Numbered from the stretch's first letter, positions 48,348 to 64,000 are shown. The stretch is 64,000 nt of DNA from a bacterium (GCA_030426125.1 JAUHZB010000001.1:26462-90461), one strand, 5' to 3'. The notes: generated from the sequence alone by a model not told the origin. Made by a program: numbers and translations.

Positions 48348-48349
48348 AA

Positions 48350-48739: not shown

Positions 48740-48740
48740 T

Positions 48741-49139
48741 TTATATTACCCCTCCTGGCCACAACCATTGTAGTAACCCTAAGAAAAATATATAAGTAAC
48801 AAGCGCCAATATAGCATTATTTATTTTGCTTTTGGCAGCCGAGACTTTCTGAGGGTCACTACCAGCAGAAGTATACTGAATTCCAGCAATAATTATCATA
48901 GCGGTTACTACTATACCAATGGTGTAGGTCAAGAGCTTTATAGCCGGATCTATTAGTTTCTCGGTAATATCACAGTCTTCAGTGCTATCACACCGACTAA
49001 AGCTTGGTTCTTCGTCAGCAGCTAATACTGTCTGTGAAGGAACAACCGCAACACTTAGCAGAAAGCTTGAAAAAATAGCTAAAAATATTAGTTTTATGTT
49101 TATTAGATTAAATGTTGGTTTTTTGAGTATTGTAAACAT
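48741..49139 (-). CDS. VirB2/TrbC-like pilin-family protein, paralog 6 (first in array)
   Basis: Signal ...VLAA, Cys pair (CDSTEDC), AGIQYTSAGSDPQKVSAAKSKINNAILALV motif. Confidence 0.5.
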   Translation of the reverse strand: MFTILKKPTFNLINIKLIFLAIFSSFLLSVAVVPSQTVLAADEEPSFSRCDSTEDCDITEKLIDPAIKLLTYTIGIVVTAMIIIAGIQYTSAGSDPQKVSAAKSKINNAILALVTYIFFLGLLQWLWPGGVI

Positions 49140-49400: not shown

Positions 49401-52400
49401 ATGAAAAAAATCAATCTAAAATTAATCAACTGGGCATTACTTTTTGTGTTTGCAATACAAATAACACTGCCTGTTATTTTACCCCCAACCAAGGTTAGCG
49501 CAGCAGAAAGTGTCGAAAGCTTAAAATCTAAAGTTAAACACATACAGAAACTCCGAGGACTTCGAAAGTGCATTGACGATAAACTAGCCACTGGAGGTAT
49601 CGGATTAGAAAGTGGTCCATTTACCCTAAAATTTATTGCTGGTAGAGCAGTGAATGCGTACGATACCCCCGTTGGCCATGGTGTTGATACTGGTGATGGT
49701 AAGTGGGACTGCGCTAGCGCGAGTGGCGACAGGGAGAACACTTGGTTCAAATTAATCCTAAAAAATGGTAGCGATAGTGAATACTACTCAGGTTGGAGTA
49801 GTGGCGGCGATAATTCCTATAAATCCGTTGCAAGCAAGAACCTAGCCGAAGAAGGGGGATATCTATACTTTATTAATCGGGATAATTTAGCTTCCCACTC
49901 TGGAGGTGGAAAGCTAACCGAAGGCCCTGCTAAAGGGAAAGTCAAAGATCAGCTAGGTAGAACAATAGCCGTGCTAGAAAGAGACTTAACTCAAGATGAA
50001 AAAGATGCCATGGCTTACCTTAACCTTTCATGGACTTTTGCTGATTCAAATGCCTGCAAAGCTCAGGAAGTTGACGCCAATAGCGGTGGAAAGAAAGTTA
50101 AAATTGGCAACAAATTATTCAGAGTAGGAAATCCTGGTGGTAAAAATTCAGTTGGTTTTGGCTTTTATGGTGATAACGGTCAAGGTATTGGAGATGGTAA
50201 TTTAACCTGTGAGCAAATAGCAGACAGGATGGCTTCCTTGGCTTCATCATATGAAAAAGCCACCGGTGACACATCCACAATACCCGAAGGATCAAACCGC
50301 GCCGTAGAAGCAGATGGCGACACCGAAGGAGACATAGAAGCACAATGCGATATCACCCCGAATCCGATCACTTGGATAATGTGTGCCTTAATTACTGGTT
50401 TTATAGAGGCCATTAACGCTCTTGATGAAGGAGTTACAAACCTACTAAACATTCGCGCCGCTGAATTCTTCGGCGAAGGCCAAGTAGGCGACAGCTTCAA
50501 TAGCGTTTGGGTAAGTGTTCGGACCATAGCTCTAGGTTTCCTGATAATTGTCGCTCTAGTTATGATAATCAGTACAGCTATAGGTGTTGGCCCCTTTGAT
50601 GCCTATACCGTTAAAAAGGTGATGCCTAGATTAGTAGCAGTTATTATATTAATACCGCTATCTTGGTCTATTGTTTATTTCATGATTGACATGACTAGTG
50701 TTATTGGATTTGGTGTGAGAAATCTAATTCAGGCACCTTTCGCTGCAAATATTGAAGGTATTGGCTTCGGTAGTACTGTATCTACAACTGCTGCAACAGG
50801 ACTACTTGTTGGAGGTTTATTCCTTGGATTACCTGGCCTTCTAAGCTTCTTGGTAGGTGGTTTTTTAGCAGTGCTAATTGCATATGTAGTACTTGTTCTT
50901 CGGCAAATATTCATAATACTTCTTGCTGTATTAGCACCCGTCGCACTGGTTGCAGCCATTCTGCCAAATACACAAAAAGCTTGGAAATTTTGGTGGGAAT
51001 CTTTTTGGAAGGCGCTCATAGTATTCCCAATTATTGCGGCATTTATTGCTGCAGGCCGAATATTTGCCCAAGTCGCCGAAACAACACAAGGTGGAGGTGT
51101 AGGTGACCTTATCGCGTTCGTGGCCTACTTTGCTCCGTATTTCCTAATACCTCAGGCCTTCAAAATGGCAGGAGGTCTACTAGGCAACCTAACTGGTGCT
51201 GTTAATGATCGAGGTCGTGGAGCCTTCGATAGACTTCGGAAGTTCCGCCAAGGGCAAATGCAACAGAATATGCAAAAAATTGATGAGGGGTCGAGATTTA
51301 GCGACAGAACTAAACTTGGCAGTAAGGTTAACTCGGGACTCCGCAAAACCAGTAAATTAAATGAGGCTGGTTTTCGACCAAGTAAAATGCGATCAAACAT
51401 CAATTCTGCAATATCGGCACAAGACCTAAGATTAGCCGATGAAAAAGGCGAAAAAGACGATGCAGTCCGTGCAATAATTAATGATGATGATATGCTAGAT
51501 TCATTTAAATTTGATGATACAGATGATCAAATTCGACAAAGACTACTTGATAGTGGAAGATTCGGCGAGGCCGGATCTAAAGAACTCAATGCCGCAGTTG
51601 CAACAGTGCGACGAGCAAAACGTACGGCTAATAGTAGCGTAAGAAGTCAAATTGCTGCCGTTGGTTCAACCGCAACAGGTACGGGAATAAAAACACATGC
51701 TGATATGTATCAAGCTGCCATTGATGCCTCAGATGGTAATCCATCAACCAGGAACGCTGTATTTGCCAAAATGCGTGCTGCGGCTGAACGCGCCGGTAAC
51801 TACTCATTGTCTGGCCCAGGCCATGCAGAATCAGTAGATGCAATGGAAAGCATGGCGAGAGGAGAGTCGGCATCGAGTATTAATGCCCGAATGCTTGCAA
51901 GATCCATGGAGGTACAAGGGGCGGGTAAAATCCTACAAGGAAAACCTACGGATGTTGAAAACTTAACCGCACAACTAGCAACAGACTATCAGTCCGCTAT
52001 GGCTGATGGAGATCTCGATAAAGCAACCTCACTTGCCGCACAAATGAAATCATTGCGAGATGCAGATAACGGAGCATCGCCTGAAAATACTAAACATGTT
52101 AATGCTATGCTTGCAGCTTCAGAGATAGATGAGGGTATGGTCAACCCCGAAACAGGTGCACCTTTGTCGATCGACGAACAATTCGCAAGGAAAATATCCG
52201 GGCGAATGGGCTCTTCGCTAACAACCGAAGTGAAGGACAAGTATGCCACCGAGCTAGCTGCGGAACATCAACGTCGTGTTAATTCTGAAAACATAGTTCG
52301 AGCTAGAAGCGGACAACCACAACTCACTGGAGCTGAGAGTTTAGCAAAATTTGACAAACTCGTAGATGAGACAGCTCTAAACGTCATTAATCAAAGGATT

Positions 52401-52496
52401 CGTACTCGTGCTGGATCGTACGACGTTGGAGGTGGTAATAGGAACGTTCCAGAAGAACTCAGGAGACAACAAGCCTTAAGTCAAGACGATAATTAA
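49401..52496 (+). CDS. VirB6/TrbL-like polytopic T4SS membrane protein with large N-terminal exported and C-terminal soluble domains
   Basis: 1031 aa; signal peptide, then at least 6 consecutive TM helices (residues about 375-610), divergently transcribed from pilin array. Confidence 0.55.
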   Translation: MKKINLKLINWALLFVFAIQITLPVILPPTKVSAAESVESLKSKVKHIQKLRGLRKCIDDKLATGGIGLESGPFTLKFIAGRAVNAYDTPVGHGVDTGDGKWDCASASGDRENTWFKLILKNGSDSEYYSGWSSGGDNSYKSVASKNLAEEGGYLYFINRDNLASHSGGGKLTEGPAKGKVKDQLGRTIAVLERDLTQDEKDAMAYLNLSWTFADSNACKAQEVDANSGGKKVKIGNKLFRVGNPGGKNSVGFGFYGDNGQGIGDGNLTCEQIADRMASLASSYEKATGDTSTIPEGSNRAVEADGDTEGDIEAQCDITPNPITWIMCALITGFIEAINALDEGVTNLLNIRAAEFFGEGQVGDSFNSVWVSVRTIALGFLIIVALVMIISTAIGVGPFDAYTVKKVMPRLVAVIILIPLSWSIVYFMIDMTSVIGFGVRNLIQAPFAANIEGIGFGSTVSTTAATGLLVGGLFLGLPGLLSFLVGGFLAVLIAYVVLVLRQIFIILLAVLAPVALVAAILPNTQKAWKFWWESFWKALIVFPIIAAFIAAGRIFAQVAETTQGGGVGDLIAFVAYFAPYFLIPQAFKMAGGLLGNLTGAVNDRGRGAFDRLRKFRQGQMQQNMQKIDEGSRFSDRTKLGSKVNSGLRKTSKLNEAGFRPSKMRSNINSAISAQDLRLADEKGEKDDAVRAIINDDDMLDSFKFDDTDDQIRQRLLDSGRFGEAGSKELNAAVATVRRAKRTANSSVRSQIAAVGSTATGTGIKTHADMYQAAIDASDGNPSTRNAVFAKMRAAAERAGNYSLSGPGHAESVDAMESMARGESASSINARMLARSMEVQGAGKILQGKPTDVENLTAQLATDYQSAMADGDLDKATSLAAQMKSLRDADNGASPENTKHVNAMLAASEIDEGMVNPETGAPLSIDEQFARKISGRMGSSLTTEVKDKYATELAAEHQRRVNSENIVRARSGQPQLTGAESLAKFDKLVDETALNVINQRIRTRAGSYDVGGGNRNVPEELRRQQALSQDDN

Positions 52497-52521: not shown

Positions 52522-53670
52522 GTGATAATATATAAAATAGACATGAAAACAAAAAACCACCCTCCTACAAACACAATCAACTCTAGCCCTGAAACACAAC
52601 CGCAACCTATAGAGATCCAAGAAGAAGAAGTTGCCTATAGTGGCTTGCGTCGTGAACTTTTTCAACGTGTCTCGGATGCAGCCTCAAACAGCATAGAAAA
52701 AACCTCGCAAACAGACCATGTAATCAGGACTGCTCCAAGTGGTGCAGAAAGAACCAGAGGCTTCTATAGCGCTCCTGAGCCTAACGACGTTAAGCCGGTC
52801 GGAATTTTCGAAAAAGCAGCAAGCCATATCAGACAAAGACAAGCTGCAAAAAAGCGTCGCCTAGAGTATGAACGTCGGCGGCTGCACAGTAGTCACGGAG
52901 GAGTCCCAGAGGACACAATAGACTACTCTAATCCAGAAAAACCCAAAAACCCAGTTTTTACGCTGGAAAGAGAATTCTCTCCAACAGCCCCAAGCGTCAA
53001 AAAAAGTGTTGAAAAATTAGAAAAAAACAGAGAAGATCAAGGGGTACCTAAAGCCAGCAAACTAGGTGTAAAGCCGATGAATGACTATGGTGAAGTCTAC
53101 AAAAAAAGAAGATCTTGGAGAGAGCGTAGAATAGAAAAAACCCAAACCAGAAAAGATCGGCGATTAAAAAAAGCTATTGATAGGCTAGACAGAAAACTCG
53201 AACGGGGCGAAGACGGTAAGACCTTGCATGGTAAATATCGAGATAAAAAAATTCATTTACTTGAATCTCTTAAACAATATTCCGATAAAAGAGTCGCTCA
53301 TGAAGACAGTAAACTTGTTAAAGTTGCACGGCAGAAAAACAAGCAAGAGTTAGCTAAATTTCTTGCAACGCACCCACCACTAGCTATGATGAGTCGAGCT
53401 GAAGCACAACAGCTGTCCGATTTACAGCGAGCAGGCGAAGCTCGTGTACTAGAAGCTGAAATGGAACTATGGATGAGGAGGTCGGGCGCAATTTCTGAAA
53501 ATGAGCGTAGGAAGTTAATTAGACAGCGTCGAGAAGCATCCTTTAGGGGAGATCAGCATAATCGACGATTGATGAAAACCGCAGCAGGCAGGCAACAACT
53601 AAAGCGACAATTCAATATAGACAATGGTGTATACGGAAGATTGCCCGAAGAAGACCAAAGTAGGAAATAA
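52522..53670 (+). CDS. hypothetical highly basic K/R/E-rich coiled-coil protein within T4SS locus
   Basis: 382 aa, runs of KKRR / RRRL, no TM; possibly nucleic-acid binding (inference only). Confidence 0.4.
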   Translation: MIIYKIDMKTKNHPPTNTINSSPETQPQPIEIQEEEVAYSGLRRELFQRVSDAASNSIEKTSQTDHVIRTAPSGAERTRGFYSAPEPNDVKPVGIFEKAASHIRQRQAAKKRRLEYERRRLHSSHGGVPEDTIDYSNPEKPKNPVFTLEREFSPTAPSVKKSVEKLEKNREDQGVPKASKLGVKPMNDYGEVYKKRRSWRERRIEKTQTRKDRRLKKAIDRLDRKLERGEDGKTLHGKYRDKKIHLLESLKQYSDKRVAHEDSKLVKVARQKNKQELAKFLATHPPLAMMSRAEAQQLSDLQRAGEARVLEAEMELWMRRSGAISENERRKLIRQRREASFRGDQHNRRLMKTAAGRQQLKRQFNIDNGVYGRLPEEDQSRK

Positions 53671-53717: not shown

Positions 53718-54782
53718 ATGGCAACCTACAAAGTACTCCAGGATATAGAAGCTGAAGACACCTTTCTAGGTCCTCTCACTCTAAAACAGTTCATCTTCGG
53801 GGCTGTGGCTATTGTTAGCTCATATGTTGCATTTTTGTTAATGACCAAAGGTCTATGGGTGTTAGCTATCCCACTACTGCCGGTAATCTTTGTGCTTGGC
53901 TTTCTAGCTTTCCCGTGGGGAAGAGATCAACCAACCGAAACATGGTTGCTAGCAAAAATTCGCTTTATGTTTAAACCCAGAATTCGTATCTGGAATCAGA
54001 CTGGTATTCAAGAACTAGTAAAGATTACGGCGCCACCACCAAAACTAGAATATACCGGAGATAACCTATCACAAACTGAGGTAAAAAGTCGCCTTAAAGC
54101 CTTGGCAGAAACCATCGACAGTCGTGGCTGGGTGGTTAAAAACGTCTCCGCTCAACAATACGCCAGCCCTAGCTACGGTCTGCTCTCTAAAAAGAATCAA
54201 TCTGATAGATTGGTTGAAGTATCTACTTTACCAAAAACCGAATCTCCAATAAATGACAATGGTATCGAAGACATGTTTGATAGCAGTAGGGCCGATCAAC
54301 TAACTAGTCAAATAGATCAAAGAAATCAAGATCACCGCAAGGAAACTGTCAGTCAGCTAAAAAGTGCCGCCAAAAAAGACAGCCAACCAGCCCCAGATCT
54401 ATGGTTCATGAATGAAGGTCCAGCCCCCAGCAAACCCGGCATGGCTAGCTTTGGAACCTCTACTGTCGCTCCTGGACAAAGTAGCTCTTCACTACCTAAT
54501 AGTTTTAGGTCAAAAAAACAGACTAAAGATCCAGACGAAAAAGCCATCTCTGAAAAACTAAAAGCTAAAAAAGATAAACCCGGGCAAGCATTCAGGAATC
54601 ACAAAACCATAGTTCCAGCCGACCAACAAAAACCATTAACACAACCGATGACAAGCGTGCCTGACCCTGTTACAATTGAACTAGCCAGAAACAACGATCG
54701 CAACATCGACAGTTTAGCTAGGGAGAGTACTAGAGCCCATAAACCACCTGAAGATGATGAAGTAGTTGTATCTCTGCATTAG
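53718..54782 (+). CDS. PrgI/VirB3-like two-TM T4SS protein with long S/P/K-rich C-terminal extension
   Basis: N-terminus DTFLGPLTLKQFIFGAVAIVSSYVAF (cf. PrgI-family F-GLT-RQ motif) followed by second TM; located immediately upstream of VirB4. Confidence 0.5.
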   Translation: MATYKVLQDIEAEDTFLGPLTLKQFIFGAVAIVSSYVAFLLMTKGLWVLAIPLLPVIFVLGFLAFPWGRDQPTETWLLAKIRFMFKPRIRIWNQTGIQELVKITAPPPKLEYTGDNLSQTEVKSRLKALAETIDSRGWVVKNVSAQQYASPSYGLLSKKNQSDRLVEVSTLPKTESPINDNGIEDMFDSSRADQLTSQIDQRNQDHRKETVSQLKSAAKKDSQPAPDLWFMNEGPAPSKPGMASFGTSTVAPGQSSSSLPNSFRSKKQTKDPDEKAISEKLKAKKDKPGQAFRNHKTIVPADQQKPLTQPMTSVPDPVTIELARNNDRNIDSLARESTRAHKPPEDDEVVVSLH

Positions 54783-54805: not shown

Positions 54806-55822
54806 ATGAATCCAACGCAGAACCAACCAGCTTCGGCTATGCCGCCTCAAGGACCTGGCGCTAACCCCTACGCAAATAATGCTCTACCAAACACCGCACC
54901 TCCAGCCGGAGGTATCCCAAACAACCAAGGTGTATCTTCTCAGGCTAATCCAATGCCTGGATCAGTTCCTTATACTGCCGCCTCCTTGCCGGGCAATAGT
55001 TTTAACCCACAATACAATCAGGCTCAACAACAGAACCAACAACCAAGTCAGCAACCTGGCGTTTCCCAGCCAAAAACAGTAGCTCCAAAATCTAACCCCA
55101 ACAGTACTCAAAACACTTTAAACATTGCCGAAATACGCGATGGTATCGTAATAATGAACGATGGTAGTTTTCGTTCTGTAGTGATGGTTAAGTCGGTAAA
55201 CTTCGATCTAATGAGCCCTCAGGAGCAGGAAGCTGTAGAGTATAGCTACCAAGGTTTTCTAAACTCGCTATATTTTCCAATTCAAATAAATATGCGTTCT
55301 CAAAAAGTTGATCTATCTCCGTATATCGAAAAATTAGACAAGATCAGAACCGAGCACGACAATATGCTTTTAGCTCTGCTAATGGAAGATTACATTAACT
55401 TCATGGGAGACCTCAGTCAGCAAACCAACATTATGGATAAAAAGTTCTACGTTGTTATACCCTACTTCCCAACCGTGGACATCCAAAATGCTCTTAGTAA
55501 CAGCAAGGGTCTAGTTAAGGGTCTCGGGGCACTATTTAGCAAAAGTCCTCAAACCCAAGTTACTATCAACGAAGTTGATCTAAACAAAGCTAAGGACGAA
55601 CTCAGAAACCGCGTACAAGCAGTCCTAGGTGGACTAATGCAATGTGGGGTACAAGGCTTACCGCTAGACACTCAAGAACTTATTGAGCTCTACTATGACA
55701 GCTACAACCCTGACACCGCCACCCGCCAGCAGCTAAAGAACTTCGACAACCTCACTGCACCTGTAATAACCAAGGGTCAAGGTCAAGCCCATAATCCAAA
55801 CCTAGACAGGGAGATGAACTAA
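54806..55822 (+). CDS. VirB4-like ATPase, N-terminal segment (Q/N/P-rich extension plus VirB4 N-domain), separate ORF
   Basis: Residues about 110-338: LNIAEIRDGIVIMNDGSFRSVVMVKSVNFDLMSPQEQEAV resembles the N-terminus of Gram-positive VirB4/TraE proteins; stops in TAATG overlapping next ORF. Confidence 0.5.
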   Translation: MNPTQNQPASAMPPQGPGANPYANNALPNTAPPAGGIPNNQGVSSQANPMPGSVPYTAASLPGNSFNPQYNQAQQQNQQPSQQPGVSQPKTVAPKSNPNSTQNTLNIAEIRDGIVIMNDGSFRSVVMVKSVNFDLMSPQEQEAVEYSYQGFLNSLYFPIQINMRSQKVDLSPYIEKLDKIRTEHDNMLLALLMEDYINFMGDLSQQTNIMDKKFYVVIPYFPTVDIQNALSNSKGLVKGLGALFSKSPQTQVTINEVDLNKAKDELRNRVQAVLGGLMQCGVQGLPLDTQELIELYYDSYNPDTATRQQLKNFDNLTAPVITKGQGQAHNPNLDREMN

Positions 55823-57738
55823 TGCTCGGTAAAAAGAAAAAAGTAGAGAATGATCCAGTAGCTCTTGCCCAACAACAAAGAGCCCGCGAGGAACAAGAAG
55901 TAAACGCTGCCTTTAATAAAGGTGTCACTGCTCTTCGTGACTTTATTGCTCCAAGCTCCATCGAATACCAAAACAACTTCTTCCACCTAGGAACTAGGAT
56001 TGCCAGAACCTTCTATGTTTTTGGTTATCCTCGGCAAATCTTCACCGGCTGGCTTAGTAGTATGATTAACCTCGATGAAGTCCTGGATCTATCTATCTAC
56101 ATCTACCCTGTAGAGAGTCAGGTGGTGCTAGAAAATCTTCGGAAGAAGGTAACCCAACTTGAAGCTGGACTTCAGATTGATGCTGAAAAGGGAAGAACCA
56201 GAGATCCAGGTAAGCAAGCAGCAATTCAAGATGCCGAAGAAATGCGCGACAAACTACAAGTGGGTGAAGAGAGATTCTTTAGATTTGGCCTATACTTTAC
56301 AATTTATGCTTCCAGTATGGATGAAATGGAGTTCGTAACCCATAAGATTGAATCAATACTCGGTCAGCAGCTAGTCTACTCCAAGGTAGCCACCTCTCAG
56401 CAAGAACAAGGTTTTAACAGCACCGTCCCCCAATTCACCGACCAGCTTCAAATCAGGCGCAACATGAACACCGGTGCTATTAGTACTAGCTTCCCATTTA
56501 CCAGCGCTGATCTTAGTCAAGACAACGGTATTTTATACGGCATCAACATGCACAACTCTGGTCTGGTAATATTCGATCGGTTTACCCTAGAAAACAGCAA
56601 CTCAGTGGTCTTCGCTAAGTCTGGTGCTGGTAAGTCATTTGCTGTAAAACTAGAAGCTCTTCGAAGCCTAATGTTTGGCACCGAGATTTTCATAATTGAC
56701 CCCGAAAACGAATACCAGAGAATGGCTGAAGCGGTTGGGGGAGCCTACGTTAGACTTAGTCTTAGTTCGGCCACTCGAATTAATCCATTTGACCTGCCAA
56801 AAGTAGTAGACACCGAAGAAGCTGACAATGCTCTCAGAAGCAACATAATTACCCTTCACGGTCTCTTGCGACTGATGATGGGTGGTGCCCAGGCTCAGAT
56901 GGCTGGCAGTGGAACAGCTGCCATGCCAGCCCTAAATCCAGTAGAAGAATCCGATCTTGATGCAGCCTTAATTGAAACTTACGCTAAAGCTGGAATCACC
57001 AACGATCCACTAACCCATAACTCCCAACCACCGACCATAATGGACCTATACGACACCTTACTTCATATGGGTGGTACCGGACCACAATTGGCTCAACGAA
57101 TCAGAAAATATACCACCGGTACCTTTGCTGGGATTTTCAGCCAACAATCCAATACAAACATAAACAACCCGCTAGTGGTCTTTAATATTCGTGACCTAGA
57201 AGATGAGCTCCGACCAGTAGCTATGTATATAGTCCTAAACTACATCTGGAACAAAACTAAAAGTGACCAGAAAAGACGCATGCTTGTCATTGACGAGGCC
57301 TGGCAGTTAATGAAATACGAAGATTCAGCCAACTTTATGTTTAGCCTTGCTAAACGAGCTAGGAAATATAACCTAGGCATCACCACCATCAGCCAAGACG
57401 TTGAAGACTTCATGGGTAGCCGAATGGGAAGGGCGATTGTAGCTAACGCTAGTATGCAACTACTACTAAAACAATCTTCTTCAGCTGTCGACGTATTAGC
57501 CGATGTCTTCAAGCTTACTAGTGAAGAAAAGAAAAGACTTAGCCAATTCCCAGTCGGTCAAGGTTTGTTCTTCGCTGGCCAAAGCCACGTGCATGTTCAA
57601 ATCCAAGCTAGCCCTACTGAGATGAATCTAATAACCACTAATCCTGACCAGATGCAAGAAATTAGTCAAAGTGGAGACCTAGACAAACCACAAGGCACTA
57701 TTGATTTACAAAACCGCTTAACACCAGGATCAGGATAA
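55822..57738 (+). CDS. virB4: VirB4/TraE/CagE-family T4SS ATPase, C-terminal segment
   Basis: Walker A AKSGAGKS, Walker B/DEAW (RMLVIDEAWQLM), upstream ...IEYQNNFFHLGTRIARTFYVFGYP conserved VirB4 region. Confidence 0.8.
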   Translation: MLGKKKKVENDPVALAQQQRAREEQEVNAAFNKGVTALRDFIAPSSIEYQNNFFHLGTRIARTFYVFGYPRQIFTGWLSSMINLDEVLDLSIYIYPVESQVVLENLRKKVTQLEAGLQIDAEKGRTRDPGKQAAIQDAEEMRDKLQVGEERFFRFGLYFTIYASSMDEMEFVTHKIESILGQQLVYSKVATSQQEQGFNSTVPQFTDQLQIRRNMNTGAISTSFPFTSADLSQDNGILYGINMHNSGLVIFDRFTLENSNSVVFAKSGAGKSFAVKLEALRSLMFGTEIFIIDPENEYQRMAEAVGGAYVRLSLSSATRINPFDLPKVVDTEEADNALRSNIITLHGLLRLMMGGAQAQMAGSGTAAMPALNPVEESDLDAALIETYAKAGITNDPLTHNSQPPTIMDLYDTLLHMGGTGPQLAQRIRKYTTGTFAGIFSQQSNTNINNPLVVFNIRDLEDELRPVAMYIVLNYIWNKTKSDQKRRMLVIDEAWQLMKYEDSANFMFSLAKRARKYNLGITTISQDVEDFMGSRMGRAIVANASMQLLLKQSSSAVDVLADVFKLTSEEKKRLSQFPVGQGLFFAGQSHVHVQIQASPTEMNLITTNPDQMQEISQSGDLDKPQGTIDLQNRLTPGSG

Positions 57739-57754: not shown

Positions 57755-60736
57755 GTGAGTACAGACCTAAAAGACAAGCCTTCCGGCATATACGATGACG
57801 AACAAAATAGCCACATAGATCGCATCCGTGATCTAGAAGCTCAAGAGGCAGCTGAAGCTCAAGAAGGCACCCATCAAACCAACGAAGATGGAAGCCCGCT
57901 AAGCGGATCCGCGATTAAAGCTAGTGAGTCAAAAAAACCAGCTTCCGGCAAAGATACTACAGATAAATCCTCAACTCCAAAATCCGGGGGATTATACAAC
58001 CCGGATGGAGACAAAAGCACTTCTAGATTCGGAAAACTAAAGTCCAAGTTGGGCAATATTGAAAACAAACGAAGAAAACTACTAGTTGTTGGTGGTAGTA
58101 TTGGTGGAGTCACCGCATTTATGCTAATACTGATATTACTAGCATCATTGAAGCTACCTCACTTCGGCCAAGTTTTAACAGCCACTGGCTACGCCAGATT
58201 AAATGGAATCATGCGTGAGCGAATGGCCCAAAACCTATTCGATAACGCTGCCACTACCGGTGATGGCCAGATATCTCTGCGTGCTAGAACGATGCGCGAA
58301 AGAATAACCGGCCAAAATTTAAACAAACAGATAACTAAACTAGGTCAGGAAAATAGGCTTATATTTGAATTGGACGGAGAAAATGTAACCGGCATCAAGC
58401 TTCCACAAGAAGGTAAAACCATATCTCTTGATACAGTTTCACAGGAACTATTCGATAAAGATTATTCGGAGATAAAAAGAATCCGAGGAGTTAGAGAGCG
58501 TATGACAGTTCGAGCAGAATACGTTAAGCAAGTAAAAGCTGGTGTGAGCGAAGGACTAGCGACTGAAACCCGGGCAGTGAGAGGAAGAGCTACCGCAACT
58601 GCTCTAAAAAACAGCGGATTTAAATATAATCGCTGGGCCAACAAAGCAAGGGAGTATTTAGGTAAAACACCGAAAGAAGCAGCTATAAAAAATACCGTTG
58701 AGACCATTGAACAGGTTGGAGGTGATAAGTTTGTTGAAACGGGAATAAAACAATATGACGATTTATCCGAAGAGCTCAAAAAAAATGGCAGTCGAATCGA
58801 GAAGTTTATGGAAAAAAACGGTGGGGTATTCGATAAAGAAGCCTATGTAAAGCAAGTGAGCACTGACTTCACCACTGGTCAAAAAATTACGGAAGCAGCC
58901 AATAAAGTGGGTGTTGGCCTGATGATAGGAACACTAGCTTGTATGGCTAACCAAGCATTTTCTAATGTAGATGAAATAGCCGAAAATAACGAACTGGCGG
59001 CCTCAAGAGCTGCTGCCGCATTACCAGCGGCTCAAGATCAGCAAATACGCGGTGAGGCTAACGATGAGGCGATTGGCGCAGAAGCAAACACCCTAACAGG
59101 TGCTGAAAATTCACAGTACTACCAATACGCAACCGGGCAAGAAATTACCGCAGAAGAGGTTGAGGTACCCAATACTAAACCAAAATACGGTAATATGGCA
59201 GATATTATCTCTCTTGCTACCAGTCCAACAACTTTTATACCTGGAGGCTTTGCCATACCAGAGCCAGCTAAAGACGCCATTAACAATGGTTTTTGTTCTG
59301 CCCTACTAGACCCCAAGGGTGCTGTCGTTGCTGCAGCTGCCGAAATAGTAGTAACTGCAGCTGCCTCGGTATTTACCGGAGGTGGTGCAGCTGTTGCCAG
59401 GGAAACCGGTGGTAGAGGCGCACTACTAGTAATATCTAGAGAGTTAGCTAGCGCAACACTAGCGACCGGAAGAGGTGTTGTTAGTAAGAAAAGCGCCGCA
59501 ACACTCCTAGGCTTTGCCGCCTTCCAGCAGGGACTAGAAATGGTCACCAGGCAGTTAGCTGGAGTTGAATTCATGGGGGGTGAAACCGGTCCACAAAAAT
59601 TCGAGATAGCAGCAGTTGGTAATAATGTACTACAATCAAAGAGAATGCGTGGGATAGGTGGTGCTCCACTAACCAATGAAGAGGCTAAGCAAGTAGACCA
59701 ACCACTCATAAAACAAAAAACTGCTGAATACCAAAACCAGAATGTTTTTGCTAGATATCTATCAATTGAAAATCCATATTCATTAATTGGAAAACTAAGC
59801 GCTATTGTACCTGGGGATATTGTTAGCCTAAAACAATCTAGCTTAACTATGGTTAATAGCTTCGCTTCAGTATTTAATATAAAAAATATACTTAATCCTG
59901 TAATGTCAATTGCGGGCCTAAACACCAAAGCTCAGGCAGTGGATAACTACAACCCGTATTATGACGTCACTCAATGGGGCTTCTCGCCATCCGAACTAAA
60001 GAAAATGCGCGAAGACCCCACCTACAACTACTACACCAATCTTGATTACATTAGCGAAGAAACTATAGCCGAATACGACGAAAAATATGGTGATTGCTTT
60101 GACACATCTAAGACCAATTATGAAGTCGAGAAAATGTCAAAATGCAGCAAAGATGAGCTAAGGGGAAACGATCAAATCTTCCGCTATAGGTTAACTTTAT
60201 TAGATGAAGAAACCGTATCGATGCTAGAACAAAAACCAGAAGATATAGGAAAAGACCCTGTAGATGATGGTGGTCAAAACATTAACTCAACTGGAAAAAT
60301 TGCGCCAAGTGGTGGAAGTGGATCTGTAGGTATTGAACAAACCTCACCAATCCCCGGAACCAACAAACGCATCCACACAGACGTTCTTCCTCAATTCCTA
60401 GACATGATTGATGCTGCCCGAGCAGATGGCATAGACCTAATGCCTATTAGTTCAGCTTGGAGAGATCCACAGAAACAAATAGAACTAAGGAAGAGTAACT
60501 GCCCAGATTGGCGTAATTCACCATCCGGGGATTGCAATCCACCAACAGCCAGACCCGGAACCTCAAAACATGAAAGTGGTAGGGCGGTAGATTTTAGCAA
60601 TATGTGCTTCTCTAGAAACGGATCAAGCTCATGTAAGGGAAATCCTAGGTGGGAATGGCTCAAAGCAAACGCCGCAACCTACGGATTCTACCCGTTAAAA
60701 AGTGAGGCCTGGCACTGGTCAACCACAGGTACCTAA
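57755..60736 (+). CDS. large N-terminally anchored protein with C-terminal M15 (LAS/VanY-like) zinc D-Ala-D-Ala carboxypeptidase domain
   Basis: Single TM near residue 120; C-terminal SKHESGRAVDF (H-x6-D zinc site) and EAWHWS motifs typical of peptidase M15/VanY. Confidence 0.6.
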   Translation: MSTDLKDKPSGIYDDEQNSHIDRIRDLEAQEAAEAQEGTHQTNEDGSPLSGSAIKASESKKPASGKDTTDKSSTPKSGGLYNPDGDKSTSRFGKLKSKLGNIENKRRKLLVVGGSIGGVTAFMLILILLASLKLPHFGQVLTATGYARLNGIMRERMAQNLFDNAATTGDGQISLRARTMRERITGQNLNKQITKLGQENRLIFELDGENVTGIKLPQEGKTISLDTVSQELFDKDYSEIKRIRGVRERMTVRAEYVKQVKAGVSEGLATETRAVRGRATATALKNSGFKYNRWANKAREYLGKTPKEAAIKNTVETIEQVGGDKFVETGIKQYDDLSEELKKNGSRIEKFMEKNGGVFDKEAYVKQVSTDFTTGQKITEAANKVGVGLMIGTLACMANQAFSNVDEIAENNELAASRAAAALPAAQDQQIRGEANDEAIGAEANTLTGAENSQYYQYATGQEITAEEVEVPNTKPKYGNMADIISLATSPTTFIPGGFAIPEPAKDAINNGFCSALLDPKGAVVAAAAEIVVTAAASVFTGGGAAVARETGGRGALLVISRELASATLATGRGVVSKKSAATLLGFAAFQQGLEMVTRQLAGVEFMGGETGPQKFEIAAVGNNVLQSKRMRGIGGAPLTNEEAKQVDQPLIKQKTAEYQNQNVFARYLSIENPYSLIGKLSAIVPGDIVSLKQSSLTMVNSFASVFNIKNILNPVMSIAGLNTKAQAVDNYNPYYDVTQWGFSPSELKKMREDPTYNYYTNLDYISEETIAEYDEKYGDCFDTSKTNYEVEKMSKCSKDELRGNDQIFRYRLTLLDEETVSMLEQKPEDIGKDPVDDGGQNINSTGKIAPSGGSGSVGIEQTSPIPGTNKRIHTDVLPQFLDMIDAARADGIDLMPISSAWRDPQKQIELRKSNCPDWRNSPSGDCNPPTARPGTSKHESGRAVDFSNMCFSRNGSSSCKGNPRWEWLKANAATYGFYPLKSEAWHWSTTGT

Positions 60737-60739
60737 ACT

Positions 60740-62566
60740 ATGAAAAATATTCCGCTACTTAAACCATTATTAAACTACACACTAGGATTTCTAATAATTC
60801 TAATTCTAGTATTTATTAATGTAGCTAACGCCTACGCAGTAAGCGTGGAAGAAATATTTACGCCATATTATAATCCAAACTTAAATAACTGCCAGCCCAC
60901 TAGTACTGGATTCACTAAAGTGCCTGACGGTGGAAAACTTTACGTGCTAGGTGATTCAATCACGGTTGGAATCGAAGACACCCTCAGGAATAAACTGCAA
61001 GAAAAAGACATAACCCCCTACATAAATGCATCTGTATCTAGGTCATGGAACGGAGCTGGAAATAGCGTTGTATCAACTCAAGGAACACCACTTCCCGGCA
61101 AAGACGCCATTAAAGAAGATGAAGCAAAGCAGGCTGGAGTTGTGTCGGGGGCTAGCGGTATAGTTATCGCCCTTGGCACTAACGGTGGCGCCTCCAGCAA
61201 CCCAATAGAAAGCGCTATTGATGAAATTAGAAGAATAAACTCCAGCGCTCCTATATGGTGGGTAAATACCGTTGGATCTTCAGCTTGGCCAAACAATATC
61301 AGTAACCTCGGATCATTCAATGAACAGCTAGTCGATCTATCCGCTACAAAAAACTTTCAAATTATTAATTGGTTTTCCGCGGTCAATCCAACCGGAGACC
61401 CCACAACAACCCCCACCAACGACCCAACACGCCTGCTAAGTGACGGCATCCATCCTAACGCTGCTGGTATTCAGAAGCTATCTACTAAAATTGTTACAGA
61501 TATTAGTGGTGGCGACTCCAGTGGCTCAACCACCGCTAGTGAAACCGGGGTTGCATGTTGCTCTGGGGCAGGAACTACAGTAGCCGGGAACAACAACGAA
61601 GAAAAAGTATGGAATTATCTTGTTGGTAACCTACAGCTTAGCGCTATTCAAGCTGCTGGAATTATGGGTAATATTCAACAGGAATCGGGATTCAGCACCA
61701 CAATAGTTAACAAAAGCAGTGGTGCTTATGGACTAATTCAGTGGCTTGGCGGTAGAAAAACCGCCCTGCAAAATTTTGCCAGGGGGCAGGGAAAGGATAT
61801 GGGTGACATATCGGTACAATTAGAATTCATGAAACAAGAGCTGGAATCTGACTACTATAGACGTCGAGTATTCGACCCAATAAAAGCCTCGCAGTCCCTA
61901 GAGGAAAGCACTAGAATATGGCTGGAAAAATTCGAAATTCCTTGTACACCAGGGTCGGCTGCTTGCGCGGAGGAAATGAATGTACGTTTACCGTTCGCTC
62001 AAAACTGGCTAACTAGGTTTGGTTCAAACACTGCCACCGCAGTAGGCAACTCACCCTCATCAACTTGCGCATCGCAAGAAGGTGGCACAGGGGTTAGCGC
62101 CGATGGTTTCGTCTTCCCGCTCAGGACTAATCAGCAAACTATTAAATCTAAGGGTTGGTGCTTCGAAAGTCAATCTAACTGCCACCATGACTACAACGCA
62201 GCAGATATTTTTGCCCCAACCGGAACCGAGGTTATTGCAGCTAGAGGTGGGCAAGTTATCCTTGTTAAATCAGGCCCAACTCGAATAGCTATCAAGGCGG
62301 ATGATGGCAATATATACTACTACACACATATGGGCGCTGGTACCGCAGTCGTCAGTAAAGGACAAACCGTTGCAGCGGGTGCTACCCTCGGTAGGGTAGG
62401 CACAAAAGCCGATGCCGCCGGAACACCCGAACACCTACATATTGATATATTGCCAGGTGATAGATATGACAATAGGCCAGGATGTGCTGGATCAGCTTGC
62501 AGTAGTTTACCCTTCATTAATATCCAACCACCACTCACCGAAGCATTTAAGAATCTACCGGAGTAA
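60740..62566 (+). CDS. tri-domain cell-wall hydrolase: SGNH/GDSL esterase, lysozyme-like (phage-tail-lysozyme/SLT-type) and M23 (LytM) peptidase
   Basis: LYVLGDSITVG (GDS block I) and ALGTNG; AIQAAGIMGNIQQESGF...GAYGLIQW (catalytic Glu region of CwlT/phage tail lysozyme-type muramidases); C-terminal HMGAG...TPEHLHIDI (M23 HxxxD ... HxH). Confidence 0.65.
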   Translation: MKNIPLLKPLLNYTLGFLIILILVFINVANAYAVSVEEIFTPYYNPNLNNCQPTSTGFTKVPDGGKLYVLGDSITVGIEDTLRNKLQEKDITPYINASVSRSWNGAGNSVVSTQGTPLPGKDAIKEDEAKQAGVVSGASGIVIALGTNGGASSNPIESAIDEIRRINSSAPIWWVNTVGSSAWPNNISNLGSFNEQLVDLSATKNFQIINWFSAVNPTGDPTTTPTNDPTRLLSDGIHPNAAGIQKLSTKIVTDISGGDSSGSTTASETGVACCSGAGTTVAGNNNEEKVWNYLVGNLQLSAIQAAGIMGNIQQESGFSTTIVNKSSGAYGLIQWLGGRKTALQNFARGQGKDMGDISVQLEFMKQELESDYYRRRVFDPIKASQSLEESTRIWLEKFEIPCTPGSAACAEEMNVRLPFAQNWLTRFGSNTATAVGNSPSSTCASQEGGTGVSADGFVFPLRTNQQTIKSKGWCFESQSNCHHDYNAADIFAPTGTEVIAARGGQVILVKSGPTRIAIKADDGNIYYYTHMGAGTAVVSKGQTVAAGATLGRVGTKADAAGTPEHLHIDILPGDRYDNRPGCAGSACSSLPFINIQPPLTEAFKNLPE

Positions 62567-62577
62567 AGGAGGAGTTT

Positions 62578-64000
62578 ATGCAGCCACAGCAACCACAATA
62601 CAGAGTCACCAGGAAACAGGTAATCTTCGGTGCGCTACTACTAATTGTGACACTTATTGCCTGGATGATATCTAGATATTCTTACATTGAAGTTAAAGTC
62701 CCAAGTGACAATAAATCATCAGAAATAACCTATCGAATATCGAAAAACGGGGAGATAGTCGACACTACATCCAATACAAGCAACTCCTACAAAAAACTAG
62801 TTACAAAAGGTGATTATGAGGTTGTTGTTGAGTCAAATAATCAGACTAGTATCAACTTAGCAACTACGACCGGCTTCTTGCAGACTACTGAGGTTACAGC
62901 CAATTTACAACCCAAAAAACGCATTGAATTTGTAGGCGACGAGCCAAGACCCTGCATGTATCTTACTAAGGTTGGGTTATTGTCTTATGGTTGTGGAGAT
63001 CAAGTTGTTGACGCCTATTACCACACTCCAGCCACAACAAATCTTCCTACCTATACCAGGCAACTGGAAAGCATCTATGACGGAAGGATTGAAGGCTCAT
63101 TTGGGCTAGAAGGTAAAGACTACATTGCGATTCAAGGTCCTTCATTAGCAGACGGAAACGAACAACCACCACAAGCTGCCTATCAACTATCTGGGTCGCT
63201 TGAGACCGGGAAAGCGCTTCCCTTAAAAGGATTGAAAGAAGACACGTCATATAACATCACTAACTACAAGACAGGTCTTTTGGCTGTGAGCGACAACGTA
63301 AGTGAGGCGCTGTATCTACCAAACCTTGAAGCTACAGCTGAACCCATAGATATAAGCGACCCCAACACCACAAGAGATAGCTTCCCTTACGACATAGCTG
63401 TTAATGACAATACAATAATAGTCGGTTTTGTCCATGATGATAGTCGTAATATTACCTACGAAGACTCAGAAGAAACCCCAAAACTAGATAGCAGCATCGT
63501 AGTAATATCCAATGACCAGAAACGAACCTTCAATTTCGACAAATTGTATGACGAAATAAAGATATGTGGACCAAATACTATCTGCTTACTAGCAGATCAA
63601 AGAATCCACATTTACGATATCTCAGAAGAAAAACCCAAACTAAAAGGGGTTATTGGCCAGGTGGATGAATTCGATACCCATAATTCAACTATTACAGCCA
63701 ATCGTGTAAGTGATGTTATTAGCTTCAATACTGAAACTATGAGCGGCCACCAAGACTACTCTTATGGTGCGCTTCAGCCCTGTGGCCTAGGTGGTATAAA
63801 CGACGATGGTAATTATTACTTACTATGCGTGACCAACCGTCGAGGTGAACAGTCAGCCATAAAGGTAACCAGCGGAATAATAAACCCGATAGATGGCTAT
63901 GTAGACAAAATTCTAGAAATCCCCGAAGTGGAAAAAGTTTCCGCATTCGGTAATATAATCTATATATCGCCAAATCTTGGAGAATATAAATACAACCCTA
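62578..64000 (+). CDS. large N-terminally anchored exported protein, partial (runs off window end)
   Basis: Manual translation from ATG 62578 (MQPQQPQYRVTRKQVIFGALLLIVTLIAWMI...) stays open in frame to position 64000; not in ORF track because no stop inside window. Confidence 0.5.
   Translation, partial: MQPQQPQYRVTRKQVIFGALLLIVTLIAWMISRYSYIEVKVPSDNKSSEITYRISKNGEIVDTTSNTSNSYKKLVTKGDYEVVVESNNQTSINLATTTGFLQTTEVTANLQPKKRIEFVGDEPRPCMYLTKVGLLSYGCGDQVVDAYYHTPATTNLPTYTRQLESIYDGRIEGSFGLEGKDYIAIQGPSLADGNEQPPQAAYQLSGSLETGKALPLKGLKEDTSYNITNYKTGLLAVSDNVSEALYLPNLEATAEPIDISDPNTTRDSFPYDIAVNDNTIIVGFVHDDSRNITYEDSEETPKLDSSIVVISNDQKRTFNFDKLYDEIKICGPNTICLLADQRIHIYDISEEKPKLKGVIGQVDEFDTHNSTITANRVSDVISFNTETMSGHQDYSYGALQPCGLGGINDDGNYYLLCVTNRRGEQSAIKVTSGIINPIDGYVDKILEIPEVEKVSAFGNIIYISPNLGEYKYNP

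Follow-up and report, generated by a model that had tools for sequence, protein, structure and literature searches.

Two predicted cell-wall enzyme genes follow VirB4 in a chromosomal T4SS locus of a Saccharibacterium

The locus of interest is contained in a 64,000 nt stretch of bacterial DNA (GCA_030426125.1 JAUHZB010000001.1:26462-90461; all of it is referred to as the window, and positions are counted from its first letter). A sequence-only reading of the window had proposed that two adjacent genes for multi-domain peptidoglycan hydrolases lie downstream of VirB4. Both open reading frames are present on the plus strand, were called identically by an independent gene caller on the public contig, and are found in the protein collection. 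The genes of the locus are:

46762-49139, minus strand: array of five pilin genes (T4SS, VirB2-like), oriented away from the operon (Pfam T4SS_pilin PF18895 in 5/5)
49401-52496, plus strand: 1031-aa polytopic membrane protein in a VirB6-like position (ORF and sequence; position only)
53718-54782, plus strand: PrgI family (VirB3-like) protein (Pfam PrgI, 2e-11)
54806-55822, plus strand: separate TrsD-like protein resembling the VirB4 N-terminus (NCBIfam TrsD, 1.6e-6; Pfam TraC-like on the public contig)
55822-57738, plus strand: VirB4-like ATPase (NCBIfam conju_CD1110, 351.7 bits against a cut-off of 325, 8e-105)
57755-60736, plus strand: ORF A, 993 aa, GTG start; T4SS-associated bitopic membrane protein with a C-terminal M15B peptidase
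60740-62566, plus strand: ORF B, 608 aa, ATG start; predicted exported three-domain cell-wall enzyme
62563-64000, plus strand, running off the window: final gene of the operon, complete length 514 aa; open frame, TM-anchored

The operon is tight: 16 nt separate the VirB4 stop codon from ORF A, and 3 nt separate ORF A from ORF B, a spacing that suggests coupled expression. The last gene is complete on the public contig (11839-13383), where it is followed by recF and dnaN on the opposite strand; it belongs to no known family, with no match in Pfam or PHROG searches. The 1031-aa membrane protein likewise has no Pfam match, and was assigned as VirB6-like from its position, by analogy with SEML1_0013 and SEML1_0011 of Ca. 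Southlakia epibionticum (S. epibionticum). The pilin array is arranged as in SEML1_0014-0019. The idea that VirB4 is split over two ORFs was rejected: the 338-aa protein upstream is a homologue of TrsD, which according to the literature is the commonest Patescibacterial T4SS component and is encoded separately.

Taken together, the window and contig contain the gene set of a Patescibacterial (Saccharimonadia) chromosomal T4SS locus: pilins, a VirB6-like protein, PrgI, TrsD, VirB4, two large exported proteins and recF-dnaN-dnaA, without a relaxase nearby. This is a chromosomal, origin-proximal, Gram-positive-type (MPF-FATA) T4SS/pilus system of a Saccharibacterium. The earlier guess at an epibiont phylum is borne out in that the named homologues and all 80 related loci belong to Candidatus Saccharibacteria / Saccharimonadales.

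An arrangement of this kind is already known from the same phylum. In S. epibionticum the two genes after virB4, SEML1_0007 and SEML1_0006, are essential for epibiotic growth by Tn-seq (Wang et al. 2023, PMC10633639; Quinonero-Coronel et al. 2025, PMC12102498). The ML1 locus of that species shares with the window (i) the layout Hsp20, pilin array, VirB6-like, PrgI, TrsD and VirB4, and (ii) after VirB4, a large protein with a C-terminal M15 fold, a multi-domain PF18013 lysozyme protein, small exported proteins and recF-dnaN-dnaA. ORF A stands where SEML1_0007 does in that locus, and ORF B where SEML1_0006 does. SEML1_0007 (1113 aa) ends in a DD-peptidase fold, and its orthology to ORF A is indirect, being drawn from position, similar size and C-terminal fold rather than from direct alignment; its AFDB matches are named after differing C-terminal enzymes (M15B, M23), as expected for the ORF A family. 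The loci differ in two respects. Firstly, SEML1_0006 combines a Glucosaminidase domain, PF18013 and a cysteine-peptidase fold, whereas ORF B combines SGNH, PF18013 and M23. Secondly, S. epibionticum has two large membrane proteins in the VirB6-like position, while the window has one. What is new here is the gp13-like lysozyme plus M23 core of ORF B, its H(x)6D motif, the helical module of ORF A with an optional M15 domain, and the turnover of both genes across species.

ORF A divides into four parts (AF2 model: pLDDT 78.7, pTM 0.72):

57755-58078, plus strand: aa 1-108, disordered S/K/D-rich tail, predicted cytoplasmic
58079-58150, plus strand: aa 109-132, single transmembrane helix (Kyte-Doolittle maximum 2.35)
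58151-60262, plus strand: aa 133-836, conserved all-alpha module, predicted extracytoplasmic, helical in the AF2 model
60350-60733, plus strand: aa 866-993, M15B (VanY/LdcB-like) zinc peptidase domain (Pfam, PDB sequence and Foldseek)

The C-terminal domain is matched by Pfam VanY PF02557 over aa 871-989 (52.4 bits against a cut-off of 25, 6e-14; profile positions 2-128 of 132), by VanYB among PDB sequences (9e-7), and by VanYB, LdcB and Ply500 in Foldseek. Aligned to VanYB, it carries R903, S937-x-H939-x2-G-x-A-x-D946 (with G942 and A944) and E984-x2-H987; the Zn ligands, catalytic base and substrate-binding Arg are conserved among homologues that bear the domain. With VanY/LdcB M15B carboxypeptidases it shares the fold and the SxHxxGxAxD and ExxH motifs, but it is fused to an 865-aa T4SS protein and reaches only 17-21 bits against the NCBIfam VanY/LdcB exception models (cut-offs 275-425). 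By score, then, the domain belongs to the superfamily only and is no orthologue of VanY or LdcB.

The remainder of ORF A is of a different character. The N-terminal tail is mostly modelled at pLDDT below 55, has a KRRK stretch immediately ahead of the transmembrane segment, and is detectable in none of the related loci. The transmembrane helix itself is hydrophobic in 71/71 aligned family members (minimum 2.0). Beyond it, the all-alpha module matches no family in Pfam, NCBIfam or PHROGs, and Foldseek against the PDB returns matches to the VanY domain and none to the helical module. Four Cys are invariant in this module (C396, C514, C781, C797). A candidate second transmembrane segment (aa 521-543) is moderately hydrophobic and conserved, has an invariant Cys on either side, and is modelled within the helical bundle. 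A word-indexed search with full-length ORF A gave five matches only, and an exhaustive HMMER search with the N-terminal module was used instead; the family so defined comprises 290 cluster representatives. In 64 of 153 members the protein stops directly after the helical module (~40% without an enzyme tail). The M15 domain is an optional C-terminal add-on. The description of ORF A as a multi-domain hydrolase therefore holds for its M15 domain and fails for the rest: ~85% of the protein is a conserved, membrane-anchored, non-enzymatic module (~720 aa) that often comes without any hydrolase domain.

ORF B is modelled with greater confidence (AF2 pLDDT 84.3; every domain above 90), and consists of a signal peptide and three enzyme domains:

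60740-60838, plus strand: aa 1-33, Sec-type signal peptide ending ANAYA|VS, without a lipobox Cys
60920-61507, plus strand: aa 61-256, SGNH/GDSL esterase domain (Pfam, residues and Foldseek)
61592-62029, plus strand: aa 285-430, gp13/PrgK-MUR-type lysozyme-like domain, a putative muramidase (PF18013 and PDB profile)
62114-62563, plus strand: aa 459-608, zinc endopeptidase domain of the M23 family, its first motif being H(x)6D (Pfam, PDB sequence and fold matches)

Residues 4-40 are hydrophobic (KD 2.39), and in the model a disordered linker comes after a helix spanning aa 7-31; the cleavage site was read off the sequence itself. Together with the ORF A transmembrane helix and the conserved Cys pairs, the signal peptide is a sign of export, and ORF B appears to be freely secreted, without a tether. 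The SGNH domain is matched by Pfam Lipase_GDSL_2 (PF13472) over aa 69-243 (35.5 bits against a cut-off of 32.9) and contains G71-D-S73, G107, G-T-N148 and D235-x2-H238. Of these, S73, N148, D235 and H238 are conserved, and the block II Gly is the least certain (G107, alternatively G105). Its best PDB fold match is 8gr2, the C. jejuni GDSL esterase Cj0610c (TM 0.62, 17% identity); a Gordonia phage lipase also matches in Foldseek. A possible identity of 8gr2 (Cj0610c) with the O-acetyl-peptidoglycan esterase Ape1 was looked up, and none of the papers searched mentions Cj0610c.

The lysozyme-like domain is matched by Pfam Phage_lysozyme2 PF18013 (aa 286-427, 117.4 bits against a cut-off of 28.2, 7e-34), and its profile matches phi29 gp13 in the PDB (3CSR/3CSQ, E 5e-23). 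In the alignment, E315 of the GNxxxES motif is paired with chain position 45 of gp13, a Glu reported to be catalytic in that protein. Both E315 and E399 are invariant in 36/36 sequences. The muramidase chemistry of the domain is inferred from the gp13-like MUR domain of PrgK.

The M23 domain (Pfam Peptidase_M23, PF01551, aa 486-571, 50.7 bits against a cut-off of 28.7, 2e-13) departs from the canonical form at one point. D489, H530, H565 and H567 (H565-L-H567 forming the HxH motif) are present in 64/64 sequences, while the position of the canonical HxxxD His is occupied by Y485, and H482 sits seven residues ahead of D489. H482 occurs in 57 of 64 homologues, alternating strictly with the canonical His (57:6, never both). 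Variants of H(x)nD spacing are documented (n=7 in gp13, n=12 in LasA). With H482 conserved in place, a spacing variant is likelier than loss, and the reading of a degenerate site was rejected as the less likely of the two. All four domain assignments (VanY/M15B, SGNH, Phage_lysozyme2 and M23), as first proposed, score above the Pfam gathering thresholds, and the catalytic residues, whose absence would have spoken against them, are present and conserved in homologues. Among homologues of the same architecture, conservation is 65-82% in the lysozyme domain and 60-76% in M23, against 15-45% in the linkers of all but the closest homologue, indicating purifying selection on the enzymes. Given their intact catalytic motifs, the ORF A and ORF B enzymes are likely to be active.

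ORF A and ORF B have the attributes of monoderm T4SS cell-wall hydrolases, as predicted from sequence: a T4SS operon, a place next to VirB4, export or anchoring, and at least one peptidoglycan-cleaving domain. Like PrgK (E. faecalis pCF10) and TraG (pIP501)/TrsG, they are encoded next to VirB4 in an MPF-FATA-type operon, with an N-terminal anchor or export signal and several extracellular wall-enzyme domains. The likeness to PrgK, CwlT and TcpG had been put forward as an analogy, and proves closer than that. PrgK MUR is an experimentally active muramidase whose only PDB homologue is gp13, the protein that the ORF B lysozyme domain matches; by transitivity through gp13, the latter domain is related to the active PrgK muramidase. 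The PF18013-type domain also occurs on 220 predicted-conjugative Gram-positive plasmids, and in the one region inspected it lies within a T4SS-type cluster. PrgK also has a LytM/M23-fold domain; its LytM site is degenerate and metal-free, whereas the ORF B M23 domain keeps all five catalytic residues. Two of the three predicted hydrolase domains of PrgK are inactive regulators, and PrgK interacts with PrgL. Further differences are that PrgK is a single protein (LytM, MUR and CHAP), while here the functions are split over two proteins with the addition of SGNH and M15, and that the T4SS of the window is chromosomal, has pilins, and lacks a relaxase or coupling protein nearby.

The second point of comparison is phi29 gp13 itself (tail-tip morphogenesis protein 1; 3CSQ/3CSR), whose two-domain core has the order seen in ORF B, lysozyme-like and then M23. 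Both have a lengthened H(x)nD in M23 (n=7 in gp13, n=6 in ORF B), and gp13-like phage 'morphogenesis proteins' align with ORF B across both domains in the fold search; direct similarity between the two M23 domains was not detected in the PDB sequence search. Unlike ORF B, gp13 is a virion protein without a signal peptide or SGNH domain.

The two genes differ sharply from their surroundings in how they vary between species. Single-sequence phmmer and tblastn searches failed to recognise the ORF A module in most related loci, though a gene of the right size was always present; the genes at positions A and B were thus taken by position and then analysed with Pfam. Among 80 species, in nearly all loci of sufficient length VirB4 is followed by a gene A of 800-1300 aa and a gene B of 365-1044 aa, and these by small genes and then recF, dnaN and dnaA. 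VirB4 is 81-88% identical among these Saccharimonadales species, while ORF A and ORF B can hardly be aligned and have shuffled enzyme domains. Conservation falls from VirB4 (84%) through TrsD (73%), DnaN (65%) and RecF (48%) to the A module (24%, where detected, in 20/47 loci). Position B holds at least 12 different wall-enzyme families in 61 species, and the tails at position A include M15, M23, CHAP, SGNH, amidase, EEP and GDPD, with alginate lyase elsewhere in the A family. The three closest relatives by DnaN/RecF have differing B architectures and no detectable A-module similarity. In relatives with 87-88% VirB4 and 72-75% DnaN identity, position B encodes lysozyme plus C39-like, lysozyme alone, or GH73 plus amidase_2, versus SGNH, lysozyme and M23 here. 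Against housekeeping similarity, Spearman rho is -0.35 for the A module and +0.55 for VirB4 (one reference genome; bit scores close to noise). By these comparisons the similarity of ORF A and ORF B across species is decoupled from housekeeping relatedness, and within a T4SS that is conserved in its other parts, these two genes change fastest and have had their domains shuffled most. The hypervariability could reflect relaxed constraint on extracytoplasmic proteins.

We consider ORF A and ORF B to be, probably, the wall-opening components of the Saccharibacterial chromosomal T4SS/pilus system. In the proposed mechanism, ORF B would be exported by Sec. Its SGNH esterase would remove an ester substituent, most simply the O-acetyl group on MurNAc, that otherwise blocks the muramidase; the gp13/PrgK-type muramidase (Glu315) would then cut glycan strands, and M23 (Zn ligands H482, D489 and H567; catalytic H530 and H565) peptide cross-links. 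ORF A, held by its one-helix anchor in the epibiont membrane, would project the helical module (~720 aa) bearing an M15B carboxy/endopeptidase, which would trim or cleave stem peptides. The result would be a local breach in the peptidoglycan, through which the T4SS channel and pilus may assemble and reach the partner cell.

The module would be needed in the epibiont's own wall at least. That it also, or mainly, acts on the host envelope is a closely balanced call that we do not quite favour; it is proposed on account of the hypervariability and domain shuffling of the A-B cassette and of its evolution out of step with the conserved T4SS core. The likeness of the fold to virion-associated phage lysins, which attack from outside, was also counted for a host-directed role, and the tethering of ORF A to the epibiont membrane and the action of PrgK-type enzymes on the donor's own wall were counted against it.

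The main alternative is a strictly self-directed, VirB1/PrgK-like role, in which the enzymes open the cell's own peptidoglycan for T4SS/pilus assembly and the variability results from neutral drift and modular reshuffling. This has a real chance of being right, although on balance we doubt it. The kinship with the PrgK muramidase by way of gp13, the equivalent place of such genes in the conjugation operons of Gram-positive bacteria and the anchoring of ORF A in the epibiont membrane all fit. The genome also has peptidoglycan machinery of its own, a Mur ligase and an L,D-transpeptidase (YkuD, 31685-33151) being encoded in the window; self-directed action alone therefore accounts for essentiality just as well, with the S. 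epibionticum phenotype attributed to lost T4SS assembly. However, close relatives should share one wall chemistry, yet their enzyme sets at position B differ; the A-family tails include some directed at polymers other than peptidoglycan (GDPD, EEP, alginate lyase); and ORF B appears to be secreted rather than tethered.

A more far-reaching version of the preferred wall-opening reading is speculative, and we regard it as rather unlikely as a whole: the A-B(-C) genes may be a hypervariable, laterally exchanged 'can-opener' cassette within the conserved, essential T4SS. The ORF A module would be a new structural element presenting interchangeable warheads (M15, M23, CHAP, SGNH, amidase, EEP, GDPD, alginate lyase) across the epibiont-host gap, ORF B a phage-tail-like drill, and the domain set would match host envelope chemistry and help determine host range. 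The A/B pair bears on how Saccharibacteria and other Patescibacteria breach the thick host wall, and on the function of their essential, relaxase-less T4SS. It is the part of that T4SS with readable biochemistry, offering four intact predicted catalytic sites, each mutable, and it is the part most divergent between species. If domain content tracks host wall chemistry, host range could be predicted from sequence in a group that is largely uncultured, and a collection of enzymes against Actinobacterial walls would be gained. Should the pair act on the wall of the epibiont alone, it would be an ordinary PrgK-type component whose interest lies solely in its unusual turnover rate.

Of the remaining explanations, the best is that ORF B, and perhaps ORF A, are T4SS-independent secreted lysins or scavengers that digest the host wall, either to kill the host or to supply an auxotrophic epibiont with muropeptides, amino sugars and D-amino acids, their co-transcription with the T4SS being incidental. 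ORF B has its own Sec signal, allowing export without the T4SS, and resembles phage lysins, and an inability to make UDP-GlcNAc has been reported for Saccharibacteria. This is nonetheless improbable: the place right after VirB4 is retained in nearly all long-enough loci despite complete domain turnover, the stop-start gaps suggest coupled expression, and the relatives of the ORF B lysozyme domain in Gram-positive plasmids are T4SS components.

It is more improbable still that the two proteins are general growth and division autolysins, with the M15 domain supplying tetrapeptide donors for the L,D-transpeptidase. VanY/LdcB-type enzymes yield tetra- or tripeptide stems, and the YkuD gene is at hand in the window, but a housekeeping role would not tolerate an A family in which many members have no enzyme tail or carry unrelated enzymes, and the T4SS linkage is fixed. 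Finally, an origin as a prophage or integrative conjugative element remnant with no role in the cell's biology, suggested by the phage-like domain families, was rejected on synteny and is effectively refuted: neither phage structural genes nor an integrase or relaxase gene flanks the locus, its recF/dnaN neighbourhood recurs in nearly all of the 80 species, the catalytic domains are under purifying selection, and the S. epibionticum counterparts are essential.

Directly behind the VirB4-like ATPase gene lie two adjacent genes, ORF A and ORF B, in the position where the sequence-only reading had placed a pair of peptidoglycan hydrolases. Both were called identically by an independent gene caller on a public contig that encodes identical proteins (L001). 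They belong to a type IV secretion system (T4SS) operon with the following genes:

46762-49139, upstream and divergent from the operon: five T4SS pilin genes
49401-52496 (+): polytopic protein in the VirB6 position
52522-53670 (+): orphan protein of 382 aa, between the VirB6-position gene and PrgI
53718-54782 (+): PrgI (VirB3-like)
54806-55822 (+): TrsD-like protein, 338 aa
55822-57738 (+): VirB4-like ATPase, which passes the NCBIfam CD1110-family cut-off
57755-60736 (+): ORF A, 993 aa, GTG start
60740-62566 (+): ORF B, 608 aa
62563-64000 (+), continuing beyond the window edge (11839-13383 in L001): last operon gene, 514 aa, TM-anchored

The VirB4 stop codon is separated from the ORF A start by 16 nt, and ORF A from ORF B by 3 nt. 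An Hsp20 gene accompanies the divergent pilin genes upstream, while the public contig shows recF and dnaN downstream, on the other strand. The operon agrees with what is generally seen at T4SS loci of Patescibacteria, which are of the MPF-FATA type, commonly encode TrsD, lie near the origin and lack a relaxase. The TrsD-like protein aligns with VirB4 profiles over their N-terminal part alone, and its stop codon overlaps the VirB4 start; one half of a split VirB4 was nevertheless ruled out, the gene being a homologue of TrsD, the most abundant T4SS component reported in Patescibacteria.

ORF B carries three Pfam domains, each above its gathering score: Lipase_GDSL_2 (SGNH; aa 69-243), Phage_lysozyme2 (the lysozyme-like domain; aa 286-427) and Peptidase_M23 (aa 486-571). 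Together with the M15 domain of ORF A, all four domain assignments of the sequence-only reading are thus borne out, and the catalytic residues on which they depend are present and conserved, provided that M23 is read as a spacing variant. The SGNH domain retains G71-D-S73, G-T-N148 and D235-G-I-H238, and the lysozyme-like domain has E315 within a GNIQQES motif, invariant in 36/36 aligned sequences. In the M23 domain, HMMER alignments against solved enzymes place Tyr485 at the first zinc-binding His of the HxxxD motif. However, D489, H530, H565 and H567 are invariant in 64/64 homologous domains, and 57 of these 64 carry His482, six the canonical His, none both and one neither. According to a family review, the H(x)nD spacing varies among M23 enzymes (n=7 in phi29 gp13, n=12 in LasA), and we read the ORF B domain as a probable H(x)6D variant. 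A dead, LytM-type regulatory domain is made less likely by the invariant residues, the alternation of His482 with the canonical His, and the documented spacing variants.

The N-terminus of ORF B is a hydrophobic signal sequence ending in ANAYA|VS, with no lipobox. In an AF2 model the three domains are well folded (each pLDDT >90) and connected by disordered linkers. Among homologues that share this architecture, the catalytic domains are far better conserved than the linkers, as expected for working enzymes. Conserved cysteine pairs (aa 474, 481, 582 and 587; window 62153-62500) flank the M23 active-site motif as WC...NCHHD and C-x4-C.

The likeness to T4SS hydrolases such as PrgK, originally proposed as an analogy, goes further than that. 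The profile of the ORF B lysozyme-like domain matches phi29 gp13 (PDB 3CSR/3CSQ) with an E value of 5e-23. At the tail tip of the phage, gp13 combines a lysozyme-like domain (N-terminal) with an M23 D,D-endopeptidase (C-terminal), the same architecture as the corresponding core of ORF B, lengthened first M23 motif included. Glu315 of ORF B aligns with the Glu at gp13 chain position 45, which we take to be the catalytic residue. The wall-degrading domain of PrgK, from pCF10, is a muramidase whose sole PDB homologue is gp13. In addition, the lysozyme-like domain matches 325 plasmids by tblastn, mostly from Lactobacillales and 220 of them predicted to be conjugative; in one example, a VirB2-like and a weakly VirB4-like gene are followed by a gene for a PF18013 plus NlpC/CHAP protein. 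The gp13 match, the homology of gp13 to the PrgK muramidase and the plasmid matches argue that ORF B is related to the T4SS hydrolases of Gram-positive systems and is more than their analogue. Other matches are to M23 enzymes and GDSL esterases (PDB folds), gp13-like "morphogenesis proteins", tape-measure proteins and tail lysins (viral folds), and tail proteins and endolysins (PHROGs).

ORF A had likewise been described as a multi-domain hydrolase. Its M15 domain is real, but the hydrolase occupies only the last 128 residues. From its N-terminus, the protein consists of (i) a disordered 108-aa tail, predicted to be cytoplasmic, (ii) a TM helix (aa 109-132), (iii) an all-helical module of ~720 aa, (iv) a linker, and (v) the M15 domain. 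The last of these scores above the Pfam gathering threshold for VanY/M15B (aa 871-989) and contains R903, S937-K-H939-E-S-G942-R-A944-V-D946 and E984-A-W-H987; these residues align to VanYB and are kept in those homologues that carry it. In the fold search it matches VanYB, LdcB and the Ply500 endolysin. With scores far under the NCBIfam cut-offs for VanY and LdcB proper, it is a member of the superfamily rather than of either family.

Neither Pfam, NCBIfam nor PHROGs contains a family that matches the helical module, and no fold in the PDB matches it. With aa 100-870 as the query, HMMER run exhaustively recovered 290 cluster representatives. In a domain-sequence search of 153 family members, 64 end directly after the module; tails carry VanY (46), SGNH (9) or M23 (3), and 35 are longer tails with no assigned domain. 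Pfam analysis of eight of the latter revealed further VanY and M23 domains, as well as Exo_endo_phos with GDPD or with alginate lyase. In the metagenomic members P0138 and P0139, such combinations replace the peptidoglycan peptidase; the targets of these enzymes are phosphodiester-linked polymers or lipids, and exopolysaccharide. The most fitting description of ORF A is that of a T4SS component, conserved but uncharacterised, with an interchangeable enzyme optional at its tip. No description of a module of this kind (large, conserved, an orphan in fold, its enzyme tip optional) was found in the literature examined.

Four cysteines of ORF A are invariant (aa 396, 514, 781 and 797), which fits an extracytoplasmic location of the module. 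The conserved cysteines of both proteins probably form disulfides or, in ORF B, a second metal site. A conserved, moderately hydrophobic Ala/Gly/Val-rich stretch of ORF A (aa ~501-605; window 59255-59570; KD up to 1.96) has a conserved acidic residue mid-helix and pLDDT <50 at aa 531-577; it is either a buried helical-bundle core or a membrane-active hairpin.

The same layout is seen in the T4SS cluster of Southlakia epibionticum ML1, SEML1_0006-0019, a cluster that according to Tn-seq is essential for epibiotic growth (PMC10633639, PMC12102498). The first gene after virB4, SEML1_0007, encodes 1113 aa with a Hedgehog/DD-peptidase (M15) fold at aa 951-1105; the second, SEML1_0006, encodes 643 aa with Glucosaminidase, Phage tail lysozyme and a cysteine-peptidase fold, and each of the two genes is scored essential. 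With both genes on record, this kind of pair is already known: the window pair is no new system, but represents the hydrolase pair that Saccharibacteria encode with their T4SS and that is related to PrgK and gp13.

All named homologues, and all loci in the best-matching 80 species-level genomes recovered by VirB4, are from Candidatus Saccharibacteria/Saccharimonadales. In nearly all of the loci that are long enough, VirB4 is followed by A (800-1300 aa) and B (365-1044 aa), then by one to three small genes, and finally by recF, dnaN and dnaA. In two loci (L030 and L057) small or opposite-strand genes come first after VirB4, with no large same-strand A-type gene; L030 has a lysozyme-bearing 1106-aa protein 3.4 kb downstream. 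Both cases point to local rearrangement.

The enzymes filling the two positions vary. At position B, Pfam domains in 61 species are Phage_lysozyme2 (41), SGNH (11), M23, Amidase_3 and CHAP (10 each), Peptidase_C39_2, SLT_2 and NlpC/P60 (7 each), SLT (4), and GH3, Glucosaminidase and Amidase_2 (3 each). The last 450 aa at position A, in 70 species, contain VanY (18), M23 (6), CHAP, EEP and SGNH (3 each), Amidase_2 (1) or GDPD (1), and no Pfam family in about half.

Median identity to the window, and detection, in 47 long related loci
VirB4: 84%, 47/47
TrsD: 73%, 47/47
DnaN: 65%, 45/47
RecF: 48%, 46/47
Pilins: about 42%, 43-45/47
PrgI: 38%, 47/47
ORF B domains: about 30%, 7-31/47
ORF A module: 24%, 20/47

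In the three genomes closest by DnaN/RecF (L002, L003 and L005), no similarity to the ORF A module is detectable, and the proteins at position B have lysozyme-like plus C39-like domains, the lysozyme-like domain alone, and Glucosaminidase plus Amidase_2. The best ORF A match, along with the same domains as ORF B, comes from a more distant genome, L035. Across 38 loci, Spearman's rho against housekeeping similarity is -0.35 for the A module, +0.55 for VirB4 and +0.44 for TrsD, as calculated from similarity scores rather than trees, with a single reference genome and near-noise scores. The A-B cassette is apparently hypervariable, shuffled and decoupled from its surroundings, a pattern not found described in the literature examined. 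The neighbouring VirB4 keeps 81-88% identity across the 80 genomes, exceeding DnaN and RecF in the same loci; this constraint is unusually strong for a T4SS ATPase. The 514-aa last operon gene, of no known family and recognisable in just 9/47 loci, appears to share the hypervariable block. The highly charged 382-aa protein has no family match and no detectable counterpart in the related loci (0/47), making it the most lineage-specific gene of the operon.

What is directly observed is where the genes lie, which domains, catalytic residues and export signals they encode, and their synteny with a system that is essential. On this basis we consider it likely that ORF A and ORF B jointly open the wall locally for the T4SS and its pilus. 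The ORF B muramidase would cut glycan strands and its M23 domain the cross-links, while SGNH would strip an ester group that hinders both. O-acetyl on MurNAc is the simplest guess for that group; given a fold match to a Gordonia phage lipase, a lipid or mycolyl ester is equally possible. The M15 domain of ORF A would trim or cleave stem peptides.

Which wall is cut is a separate question. A host-directed component of the cutting is given a little less than an even chance. In its favour are the way domains turn over and are shuffled among species that should be alike in their own wall chemistry, A-family tails aimed at non-peptidoglycan polymers, the apparently free secretion of ORF B, and the phage-tail architecture. 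The pair may also act on the epibiont's own wall, to which the relatedness to PrgK, the anchoring of ORF A in the epibiont membrane and peptidoglycan genes of the same bacterium within the window all point. The sequence-only reading was right in its observations, and its interpretation is supported with corrections.

The peptidoglycan genes in question are an L,D-transpeptidase (YkuD plus PG_binding_4; 31685-33151, +) and a Mur ligase (22824-24227, -), and the epibiont accordingly makes peptidoglycan of its own, in which 3-3 cross-links may occur. Such cross-links need tetrapeptide donors, which a VanY/LdcB-type enzyme could supply. The window also encodes a Pup-ligase family protein (PafA/Dop-like; 483 aa; 33126-34574, -; Pfam E 8e-27). 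Since pupylation enzymes are typical of Actinobacteria, the host phylum of cultivated Saccharibacteria, this gene may have been transferred from a host.
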